Assembly: GCF_000993805.1 (NCBI RefSeq)
Contig: NZ_CP009961.1
Location: 1-24,000 of the forward strand
Origin: Infirmifilum uzonense
Lineage (GTDB): Archaea > Thermoproteota > Thermoprotei > Thermofilales > Thermofilaceae
Direction: 5' to 3'
Length of the DNA stretch: 24,000 nt
Translations under genes and position numbers: made by a program
In this document: positions 6,628 through 11,489 of the stretch, in pieces
Position numbering within the stretch: the stretch's first letter is position 1
Layout of the letters: each line of letters starts with the position of its first letter
Notes under the pieces: generated by a model
What the model was told of the DNA's origin: nothing
The model's database searches: none
What the model saw: the letters and a program-made list of their open reading frames with translations, nothing else

Positions 6628-7220
6628 CTAGTCTTCTATTAAAACTCCTTGCTCTTTGAGTATAGCATAGATTTTGTTTACGGCGTTTTTTACCTCTTCT
6701 TCTTTTTTAGCCCCTGTGCACACAACTTTGCCACTGCTGAAGATCAGTAAGACGACCTTCGGCTCGTTCATACGATAGATTAGTCCAGGAAATTGTTCAG
6801 GCTCATACATAGCGTTTTCTAGTAGGAAGGCAGCCCGTTCAAGGTCAACAGCCGCCTTGAGGTTAGCGCTCGCCACTATGTTCTGTATCTCAACTATGGG
6901 CTCATTTCTAATGTCTATTCCGTGCTGCTTTAAGAGTTTGATAATGCTTCCAACAGCCTTCTTGACCTCCGTCTCTGACTTTGCTCCTGTACATACCATT
7001 TTCCCGCTGGAGAATATTAGCGTTGCTGTTTTCGGTCTGTTTAGTCTAAGCACTAGACCCGGAAACTCTCGGATCCCAGGTCCGGAGACCTGGGATGTTC
7101 CGGACTATACTCGGCGTGAGGTATTCGTTCAGCTATACGCTCTAGATCTAAACGTTGGTTGAGGGTTACAGAGGCAACAACGTTTTGAATCTCATAGGTT
7201 GGTTCAGGTATGTTGACCAC
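6628..7220 (-). CDS. tbp: TATA-box-binding protein, reading frame interrupted by a 29-nt insert (7066-7094)
   Basis: The segment from GTG 7220 to 7095 encodes [42 protein letters not shown]. The segment 7065 to 6628 encodes [30 protein letters not shown]... through the second repeat ([34 protein letters not shown]). The two parts are in different frames. Joining them gives a normal 187-aa two-repeat TBP. Confidence 0.85.
7066..7094 (-). other. 29-nt frame-breaking insert in tbp with a perfect 10-bp hairpin
   Basis: In mRNA sense it reads CCCAGGUCUCCGGACCUGGGAUCCGAGAG. The hairpin arms are 7073-7082 and 7087-7096 with a 4-nt loop. It was delimited by requiring the ...PEH|FPGL... junction. Confidence 0.7.
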
Positions 7221-9525: not shown

Positions 9526-9822
9526 ATGTTCGAGGGTAATATTTCAAAAGGTAATACCTCATCGTCTAAATTTCAAGTCAAGATTGGTCCACCCTGGCTG
9601 ACAAGGTTTGAGAAAGCCCGGATTCTTGGTATAAGAGCCCTTCAGATCTCCTTTGGGGCGCCCGTCTTGATCCCAGTTGAGGAGTCTGAGAATATAGACG
9701 CTATAAAAATAGCCGAGAGAGAGCTTGAGATGGGCGTTTTACCAATAGTCATAGTACGTTGGACACCAGAGGGAAGAGTCCAGGACATACCATTAAAGTT
9801 CTTAAAGCTTAGTCCACCCTAA
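9526..9822 (+). CDS. rpoK: DNA-directed RNA polymerase subunit K (Rpo6/Rpb6 homolog)
   Basis: LTRFEKARILGIRALQISFGAPVLI...AERELEMGVLPIVIVR is the Rpb6/omega-like core. ATG 9526 is preferred over TTG 9502, and TTTAAATA (9493-9500) fits a near-leaderless start. Confidence 0.88.
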   Translation: MFEGNISKGNTSSSKFQVKIGPPWLTRFEKARILGIRALQISFGAPVLIPVEESENIDAIKIAERELEMGVLPIVIVRWTPEGRVQDIPLKFLKLSPP

Positions 9823-10178
9823 CCCTCTCGCTTCAATTCTATTTTTTCATTTGAGATCGTAATCTCAAAGAAGTCTCCAATGCTAGGCTTCGTAACGAAC
9901 TTTTCCCATTCATCTTCGGTTAATACCAATGTAACTCTTGGAACACGCATAACTCCGGGCGAAGCTCCGGGAAACATTCTCATGATTTGCGATATTATTG
10001 GGGCTATTTCACGACTTATCTCGCTATCCGGAGATCTCACAAACATGGGCTCGGGCATTTCTCTTTCCTCTGTTAGTTCCAATTTCACCATTCTCTCTCC
10101 AAAGGGAGCGTCAAAAAGAGAGATATTAGAGACCTTTGCTTTAAACCTAACAGATATTTCAGACATGTGTAATCCCAT
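9819..10178 (-). CDS. Hypothetical protein
   Basis: The ORF is open to 10223 (TTG). The first ATG codons are at 10178 and 10166, and a TATA-like TATTTTAA lies near 10240-10250. I recognise no motif. Its 3' end overlaps convergent rpoK by 4 nt. Confidence 0.5.
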   Translation of the reverse strand: MGLHMSEISVRFKAKVSNISLFDAPFGERMVKLELTEEREMPEPMFVRSPDSEISREIAPIISQIMRMFPGASPGVMRVPRVTLVLTEDEWEKFVTKPSIGDFFEITISNEKIELKREG

Positions 10179-10284
10179 TATCCGAGCTCTAATTATGTTT
10201 TTTGCAGTGGAATGTGAAATCAAAATTTCTCATGTGATATGGTTAAAATACGTCATGTGGTTAACATGAGAACAGAATCCAAGA

Positions 10285-10384
10285 AGCCCCGGCCGGGATT
10301 TGAACCCGGGACCTTCGGCTCCCTCGAACCCCCCTCTCTAGGGCCTTACAAGGCCGACGCTCCACCAGTCTGAGCTACCGGGGC
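10285..10384 (-). tRNA. tRNA-Thr(UGU) with a 26-nt canonical intron (10321-10346)
   Basis: The minus strand reads GCCCCGG-TA-GCTC-AGACTGGTG-GAGC-G-TCGGC-CTTGTA[intron]A-GCCGA-AGGTC-CCGGG-TTCAAAT-CCCGG-CCGGGGC-T. The BHB central helix is CTTG/CGAG with bulges TAA and GGA. A TATA-like AATAAATTTA lies 27-36 nt upstream. Confidence 0.9.
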
Positions 10385-11043: not shown

Positions 11044-11171
11044 TGGTGGGCCCGCCGGGATTTGAACCCGGGACCTCCGCCGATCTCCGGCGAACCCCAT
11101 ATACGAATTCCTTGTGCTCGCCGCGCGACTCGCTGCGCAAGGGCGACATCCTACCGCTAGACTACGGGCCC
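11044..11171 (-). tRNA. Intron-containing tRNA with anticodon UGC (Ala-type) but a G3-C70 acceptor stem; genomically encoded CCA; 53-nt intron (11083-11135)
   Basis: The minus strand reads GGGCCCG-TA-GTCT-AGCGGTA-GGAT-G-TCGCC-CTTGCG[intron]C-GGCGG-AGGTC-CCGGG-TTCAAAT-CCCGG-CGGGCCC-A-CCA. The BHB has helix CTTG/GGAG (3 pairs plus G-G), bulges CGC and ATC, and inner helix GCGAGTC/GGGTTCGC. The isotype is uncertain because the Ala identity pair G3-U70 is absent. Confidence 0.75.
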
Positions 11172-11387: not shown

Positions 11388-11489
11388 CGGGCCGGCCGGG
11401 ATTTGAACCCGGGTCCTACGGGTTAAAAGCCTCAACCTGCCTAGGAGGACTAGGCAAACCGTCGCTCTTCCTAGCTGAGCTACCGGCCC
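11388..11489 (-). tRNA. tRNA-Lys(UUU) with a 28-nt intron at non-canonical position 30/31 (11431-11458)
   Basis: The minus strand reads GGGCCGG-TA-GCTC-AGCTAGGAA-GAGC-G-ACGG[TTTGCCTAGTCCTCCTAGGCAGGTTGAG]G-CTTTTAA-CCCGT-AGGAC-CCGGG-TTCAAAT-CCCGG-CCGGCCC-G. The BHB central helix is CGAC/GTTG with bulges GGT and AGG. The inner helix is TGCCTAG/CTAGGCA. Confidence 0.88.

Follow-up and report, generated by a model that had tools for sequence, protein, structure and literature searches.

The DNA analysed here (the window) is a 24,000-nt stretch from the hyperthermophilic archaeon Infirmifilum uzonense, in which the tbp gene, encoding the TATA-box-binding protein (TBP), lies on the minus strand in two pieces. 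An ORF starting with GTG (7220..7053, minus strand) encodes the first 42 residues of TBP (...AEYSPEH) followed by a 13-residue junk tail, and the remainder of the protein (FPGLVLRL...) occupies a different frame between 7065 and the stop at 6628. An earlier note on this DNA had described the two TBP halves as lying in different frames with 29 nt between them, with which both the ORF list and the translation agree, and translation also confirmed its claim that deletion of 29 nt from the minus strand gives a TBP of 187 aa. A junction of the PE(Q/H)FPGL type is restored by three registers of a 29-nt deletion: loss of 7096..7068 or of 7095..7067 gives PEQFPGL, and loss of 7094..7066 gives PEHFPGL. 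PEQFPGL is the TBP consensus and is identical to the sequence found in repeat 2 and in intron-less orthologues. The 187-aa product matches the Pfam TBP family (PF00352) in two stretches with a score of 229 bits, as compared with 169 bits for the annotated 141-aa piece alone, and it aligns without gaps across the junction with the Sulfolobus TBP 1mp9 (residues 9–180 to 13–184). Both tandem TBP repeats are thus complete in this product and colinear with those of solved TBPs.

In RefSeq the locus is represented by two separate small genes. The 141-aa ORF (7053..6628, minus strand) is exactly WP_191118587.1, 'TATA-box-binding protein [Infirmifilum uzonense]', which is without about a quarter of the protein, and the 55-aa ORF, including the tail encoded by the insert, is exactly WP_191118588.1, 'hypothetical protein [Infirmifilum uzonense]'. 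Similarly shortened TBPs of 142–153 aa have been deposited for I. lucidum, Infirmifilum sp. NZ, and Thermofilum pendens and Thermofilum sp. MAGs, and the proteins named Infirmifilum among the best 120 TBP matches are shortened ones only. An exact look-up of five predicted spliced proteins in a collection of 15 billion proteins returned no full-length spliced TBP. Two full-length close homologues (P0001 and P0003) were considered as spliced cDNAs and rejected as such, since they lie on genomic, syntenic contigs that are intron-less. At 90% identity WP_191118588.1 (55 aa) is clustered with an ENA protein of 1918 aa (P0122), which is probably a run-on gene call across the tbp locus in a metagenome. 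Two further proteins from ENA metagenome contigs, P0002 (275 aa) and P0004 (272 aa), have three TBP-type repeats in succession as opposed to the normal two, and each of these repeats bears a motif of the (E/R)EQFPGL type.

The insert contains a perfect 10-bp stem, ATCCCAGGTC/GACCTGGGAT (7096–7087 and 7082–7073, with a TCCG loop), and this stem as well as the CCGG cores were located where the earlier note had placed them. Read 5' to 3' on the coding strand together with its flanks, the region has the order C-CGGA-ACA-UCCCAGGUC-UCCG-GACCUGGGA-UCCG-AGA-G, and can be folded into a bulge-helix-bulge (BHB) structure. The 5' strand of the 4-bp central helix (H) is CGGA at 7099..7102, which belongs to the exon-1 codons CCG GAA and pairs with the 3' strand, UCCG at 7070..7073, inside the insert. 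Helix H is flanked on opposite strands by two 3-nt bulges, ACA (B1, 7096..7098), which lies between H and the inner stem, and AGA (B2, 7067..7069). The inner hairpin (h', 7074..7095) consists of the 9-bp stem UCCCAGGUC/GACCUGGGA closed by the loop UCCG. In cbf5 introns the cut falls between the second and third bulge residues (Yokobori 2009, PMC2738675), and with this rule the predicted splice sites are C7097|A7096 (5') and G7068|A7067 (3'). Exactly 29 nt are taken out by these two cuts, joining GAA C to AG UUU to give E-Q-F. Exon 1 would then extend over 7097..7220, comprising the GTG start at 7220, 41 codons and the C of a Gln codon (ending ...CCG GAA C), the predicted intron, AUCCCAGGUCUCCGGACCUGGGAUCCGAG, over 7068..7096, and exon 2 over 6628..7067, beginning with the AG that completes CAG (Gln), continuing with TTT CCG GGT and ending with the stop codon at 6630–6628, all on the minus strand.

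The BHB geometry therefore picks 7096..7068 from among the three registers, and the product reads PEQFPGL. In the earlier note the junction had been drawn with PEH directly before FPGL; deletion of 7094..7066 does restore that sequence, but the register selected by the fold is a different one. Having set the junction 2 nt too far 3', the note had failed to fold a canonical BHB with its cuts at the required positions and had played down removal at the RNA level for this reason. The BHB core appears once the junction is moved by 2 nt, and among the four explanations that the note had listed, RNA-level removal is the one supported by the data described below. The outer edge of B2 is formed by only one invariant pair (C7103:G7066), beyond which the outer helix (h) continues with a Y·U mismatch and then an R-U pair (G·U or A-U). 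With so weak an outer helix the 3' splice site is of the relaxed, HBh'-like kind and not canonical hBHBh'; relaxed BHB motifs are known to be cut by crenarchaeal heteromeric endonucleases (literature including PMC2738675).

The 86-nt stretch around the insert folds better than its shuffles (z = -3.6), and a covariance model of the motif finds it in the window at 7066..7103 with 57 bits and an E-value of 1.8e-12. In the minimum-energy fold calculated at 37 °C, CCGGAA of exon 1 pairs with UUCCGG of exon 2, leaving a 6-nt bulge, and this competing exon-exon fold is more stable than the BHB by about 10 kcal/mol at that temperature. We rejected the exon-exon helix as an alternative to the BHB since the wobble position of the Pro codon (in FPG) takes all four bases in relatives and the helix is lost at 85 °C, the temperature at which the species is reported to grow best (PMC4673724). 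The minimum-energy folds predicted for that temperature contain H with its UCCG strand, the 3-nt bulge and the inner stem in all four sequences tested (the window and the related loci L049, L029 and L091). After splicing, the junction in I. uzonense (7103–7060, minus strand) would read CCGGAA-CAGU-UUCCGG, which can form a hairpin of six perfect base pairs whose loop contains the splice site; this hairpin depends on the same Pro wobble base and is not kept in relatives.

Four intron-bearing tRNA genes were identified in the window with Rfam, at 166–295 on the plus strand and at 10285–10384, 11047–11171 and 11388–11489 on the minus strand. They measure 100–130 nt, as against 71 nt for the Rfam model, and the absence of tRNAs reported by ARAGORN for the window is accordingly a false negative. 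In two cases a canonical hBHBh' motif could be parsed with the cut rule used for tbp, giving a 26-nt intron at position 37/38 of tRNA-Thr(UGU) and, in the anticodon stem of tRNA-Lys(UUU), one of 28 nt whose position is non-canonical, and in both the intron length agrees with the number of extra nucleotides seen by Rfam. The other two genes have about 53–56 extra nt and probably contain two introns each. An organism with four intron-containing tRNA genes must possess functional BHB splicing. Neither EndA nor ligase genes were detected within the window itself when its ORFs were annotated with Pfam, nor was any obvious second split gene seen there. A generic scan for BHB geometry gave 113 'strong' matches in the window compared with about 79 in the shuffled window, and was thus too permissive to nominate further mRNA introns; it was kept for the positive controls only. 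An arcadin-1 homologue (Pfam PF18653, E 2e-49) lies at 9819–10223 on the minus strand, between a thermosome gene and a tRNA gene.

A scan guided by protein sequence, covering a single genome for each archaeal species, recovered 80 tbp loci, of which three shift frame at the same residue as the window gene. These are from Thermoproteales archaeon AUK141 (L021), archaeon S6B1_HD70 (L029) and a Thermofilaceae archaeon (L049), with 29, 31 and 28 extra nt, respectively. All three read CGGA-AC(A/G)-stem-loop-stem-UCCG-A(G/A)A, and the stems differ from each other while remaining complementary. A DNA pattern derived from them retrieved 39 metagenome contigs, 36 of which carry tbp and which come from about 22 datasets, and loci reached through the shortened database proteins added the complete genome of I. 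lucidum (CP062310.1) and Thermofilum sp. MAGs. In total, about 45 independent assemblies of Thermofilaceae-like archaea show this architecture at the same codon, with lengths of 27–32 nt, and all of them splice in silico to GAA CAG TTY (EQF). Exon 1 is conserved at the protein level in 35 distinct intron-bearing genes. An independent metagenome contig (L099), 98.6% identical to the window over 4.7 kb, has the identical insert, as does I. lucidum. Between I. lucidum (CP062310.1; positions 1442–1520 of locus L124) and the window (7110–7040) several flanking synonymous sites differ while the 29 nt do not, so that within Infirmifilum the sequence of the predicted intron seems more constrained than silent coding sites.

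These occurrences bear directly on the possibility that the 29 nt are an assembly or sequencing artefact absent from the real genome. A palindromic hairpin in a genome with many annotated pseudogenes is the kind of setting in which such an error might be suspected, but L099 and the complete I. lucidum genome contain the identical insert, and homologous inserts occur on contigs from about 22 different datasets. With about 45 independent assemblies in agreement, we regard the chance of an artefact as practically nil.

The 26 distinct sequences were aligned with MAFFT (alignment A1) and compared with the proposed structure. The 4-bp helix H separates the two splice sites in all 26, and 98.9% of the cells in the alignment are paired as proposed. 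The inner helix h' varies between 8 and 11 bp, and compensatory double changes were observed at eight of its nine aligned pairs. The number of double-changed cells, 46, is far above that in shuffled alignments (11 ± 4) and was reached in none of 500 shuffles, and in a control in which the partner was slid by one column the pairing fell to 38–52%. RNAalifold, run without hints, predicts exactly H, the 3-nt bulge B1 and the inner stem. Bulge B1 is ACA in all but one of the distinct sequences in A1, the exception being ACG in L029, and B2 is AGA or AAA in all relatives. As the stem sequence varies freely between species while the architecture is kept, the local resemblance of 8 out of 11 nucleotides on which the earlier note had based an origin by template switching, as a quasi-palindrome, says nothing about where the insert came from, and that idea is not supported.

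Helix H itself shows no variation in any intron-bearing gene. This invariance is unbiased in the eight loci that came from protein searches, as in the metagenome set H and the bulges were imposed by the search pattern. Given that it never varies, covariation neither supports nor contradicts H. Independent support comes from codon choice. Among 58 TBP genes with no intron, Pro is encoded by CCA in 22, CCT in 18, CCC in 11 and CCG in 7, and Glu by GAA in 33 and GAG in 25, whereas the intron-bearing genes always have CCG GAA. Since the exon half of H is made of codons, its synonymous sites are constrained. We also considered that the insert might be a dispersed repeat or MITE, which was rejected because the covariance model matches once per intron-bearing locus and always in tbp. 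The core model gave one hit per locus, only in tbp, across 43 related loci (51–62 bits, E about 1e-10 to 1e-12), and neither the window nor 311 kb of related DNA yielded another intron of this type.

The lengths and contents of the relatives' inserts allow a further alternative to be weighed, namely translational recoding, in which the ribosome would shift frame at GAGAG or hop over the hairpin in the manner of phage T4 gene 60 and make TBP with or without a 9-aa insertion. In I. uzonense a stable hairpin does adjoin a GAGAG run, at which the earlier note had proposed re-pairing of tRNA-Glu. However, the inserts of the relatives measure 27, 28, 29, 30, 31 and 32 nt and stand in three frame relations, represented by 10, 9 and 8 of the 27 distinct introns, and with lengths in all three mod-3 classes no single frameshift or hop can serve all of them. 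Many relatives read CCGAAAG in place of CCGAGAG and thus have no GAG landing codon, and if the ribosome hopped from GAA to GAG the product would read PEFPGL, one residue shorter than the consensus. The GAGAG run is not conserved, and the insert shows neither the constant slippery (or take-off and landing) sequence nor the one frame relation expected of a programmed bypass or frameshift site. In addition, each of the ten in-frame inserts is interrupted by a stop codon in its loop, and 18 of the 25 hairpins contain a stop in frame. Recoding in any of these forms is in our judgement extremely unlikely.

The stop codons deserve description in their own right. In the exon-1 frame they are present in 12 of 15 distinct loop types (the 18 of 25 hairpins above), compared with about two expected, a count that none of 20,000 shuffles attained; these numbers are inflated by relatedness, and when the set is collapsed to about ten lineages, stops remain in roughly seven. 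Stop triplets touching the loop number 13, every one of them in the exon-1 frame and none in the other two frames. The three loop types without a stop, which include the UCCG of the window (7086–7083), all belong to the class of 29 or 32 nt, in which the shifted frame meets a stop within about 15–19 codons in seven of eight introns; in the eighth (L105) no shifted-frame stop occurs in the stretch examined. This pattern looks like the result of selection to end translation of the unspliced RNA early.

It could also be proposed that TBP is a split protein in this lineage, the N-terminal 42–55 aa and the C-terminal 141 aa being made separately and assembling without a covalent link, much as gene callers have found two ORFs here. 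Against this, 33 of 38 distinct genes have no ATG, GTG or TTG in the exon-2 frame upstream of FPGL, and in several there is no start codon for 20 codons in that frame. The break, moreover, splits a codon within the conserved PEQFPGL motif, and independent synthesis of two pieces leaves the exact restoration of CAG without explanation. We therefore hold a split TBP to be exceedingly improbable.

Another view of the locus would be that tbp is disrupted and decaying, the real TBP being supplied by another copy elsewhere in the genome. The handling of the locus as two small genes in RefSeq would fit, as would the 192 pseudogenes that the genome paper counts among the 1697 genes of I. uzonense (as T. 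uzonense; PMC4673724). The two exons are, however, under equal purifying selection, with pN/pS of 0.148 in exon 1 and 0.140 in exon 2 when codons fixed by the search pattern are left out, and synonymous sites are saturated. Nor would decay account for the position of the interruption, which is constant to the nucleotide throughout a family-level clade and comes with a covarying structure, or for a spliced protein with two full TBP repeats and a gapless alignment to 1mp9, and the TBPs named Infirmifilum among the best 120 matches comprise no full-length copy. A disrupted tbp, which the earlier note had listed as one of its options, is very unlikely on this evidence.

The distribution of the insert is that of a clade-specific element. 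When 100 TBPs are placed in a neighbour-joining tree, the 27 distinct sequences with the intron fall in one clade in which three intron-less tips are nested, and all 70 sequences outside this clade are without the intron. Four intron-less close homologues (P0001, P0003, L001 and P0102), all on genomic contigs, read TCN CCW GAG CAG TTY straight through and have neighbours in common with the intron-bearing loci, namely genes for a signal peptidase, tbp itself and a GNAT acetyltransferase. One clade with three nested intron-less tips suggests a single gain and few losses, as has been proposed for cbf5, a history that we hold loosely given a tree that is short and unbootstrapped.

Taken together, the data make it very probable that tbp contains an archaeal BHB intron in its coding sequence, formed by the 29 nt at 7096..7068 (minus strand). 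In the pre-mRNA, CGGA of the exon would pair with UCCG of the intron to form the 4-bp central helix, bordered by the 3-nt bulges ACA and AGA and stacked on the 9-bp intron hairpin. The tRNA-splicing endonuclease (EndA) would cleave after nucleotide 2 of each bulge, and an RNA ligase of the RtcB type would seal ...CCG GAA C to AG UUU CCG..., producing an mRNA for a normal 187-aa TBP, whereas the unspliced RNA would yield a short N-terminal peptide only. Both the cleavage and ligation steps and the identity of the enzymes are what we infer from the architecture of the motif. Recognition of the intron corrects the annotation of an essential gene, and similar shortened TBPs exist in Thermofilum and Infirmifilum genomes and MAGs. 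Part of the 192 pseudogenes of I. uzonense may likewise be unrecognised intron-bearing genes and not decayed ones, and a share of the many 'pseudogenes' annotated in these genomes would merit re-examination with BHB structures in mind.

A more far-reaching and speculative reading, built on the stop codons of the loops, is that the tbp intron is not a passive passenger but a maintained control point, with the loop stop as a fail-safe, and that it forms an archaeal counterpart of XBP1/HAC1-type splicing. In XBP1 and HAC1, unconventional cytoplasmic splicing excises a very short, frame-shifting intron (26 nt in XBP1) through the stem-loop-specific endonuclease Ire1 and a tRNA ligase (RtcB in animals), giving an active transcription factor under the regulation of stress. 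The analogy with tbp is one of logic only, since the endonuclease and the RNA motif differ and the XBP1/HAC1 intron is a stress switch, and we consider this reading unlikely. If a control point were present, TBP synthesis would depend on the activities of the tRNA-splicing endonuclease and ligase, and if the fail-safe operates, the unspliced mRNA would give rise only to a harmless short peptide. The enrichment of stops in the loops hints at selection on the fate of the unspliced mRNA in a setting where transcription and translation are coupled.

Several systems in archaea can be compared with the tbp intron. Introns of archaeal tRNAs and rRNAs share its BHB recognition architecture and presumably its enzymes, but the tbp intron resides in an mRNA with no tRNA body, its outer helix is 1 bp long in place of the 5 bp seen in the two tRNA controls and, unlike in tRNA introns, the exon half of H is built from codons. 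The BHB intron of HVO_1309 in Haloferax volcanii (Schwarz 2020, PMC7714728) is also an mRNA substrate of the archaeal splicing endonuclease; it lies in the 5' untranslated leader of a euryarchaeal transcript and interrupts no reading frame, whereas the tbp intron does. As of 2020 the only other mRNA BHB case reported was cbf5 (PMC7714728), the pseudouridine synthase gene whose pre-mRNA contains an intron in Desulfurococcales and Sulfolobales (Watanabe 2002; Yoshinari 2006; Yokobori 2009, PMC2738675). Full-text literature searches, with most subscription journals outside their reach, returned no mention of the tbp intron, so that an earlier report is possible; tbp appears to be the second archaeal protein-coding gene family with an intron of the splicing endonuclease.

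The introns of cbf5 and tbp have much in common. Both are short coding-sequence introns (19–44 nt in cbf5 and 27–32 nt in tbp) inserted between bases 1 and 2 of the codon for a conserved residue. They have BHB-like boundaries, often of the relaxed type, with cuts after the second bulge nucleotide, which in tbp are predicted. Each is confined to one clade with apparent secondary losses, and each is routinely overlooked in annotation or called a frameshift. On the other hand, the two introns have no sequence relation, cbf5 encodes an RNA-modification enzyme whereas tbp encodes a general transcription factor, and in the tbp intron's own lineage, the Thermofilaceae, cbf5 is intron-less (Thermofilum; table in PMC2738675). 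Splicing of cbf5 is supported by cDNA and in-vitro cleavage, whereas the tbp intron is predicted from sequence; two cultured carriers with complete genomes, I. uzonense and I. lucidum, make it a tractable system. For more than twenty years cbf5 has stood alone as the documented archaeal protein-coding family with such an intron, and a second case, in another lineage and in a core transcription factor, would mean that the splicing of mRNA by the tRNA machinery is not a curiosity of one gene.
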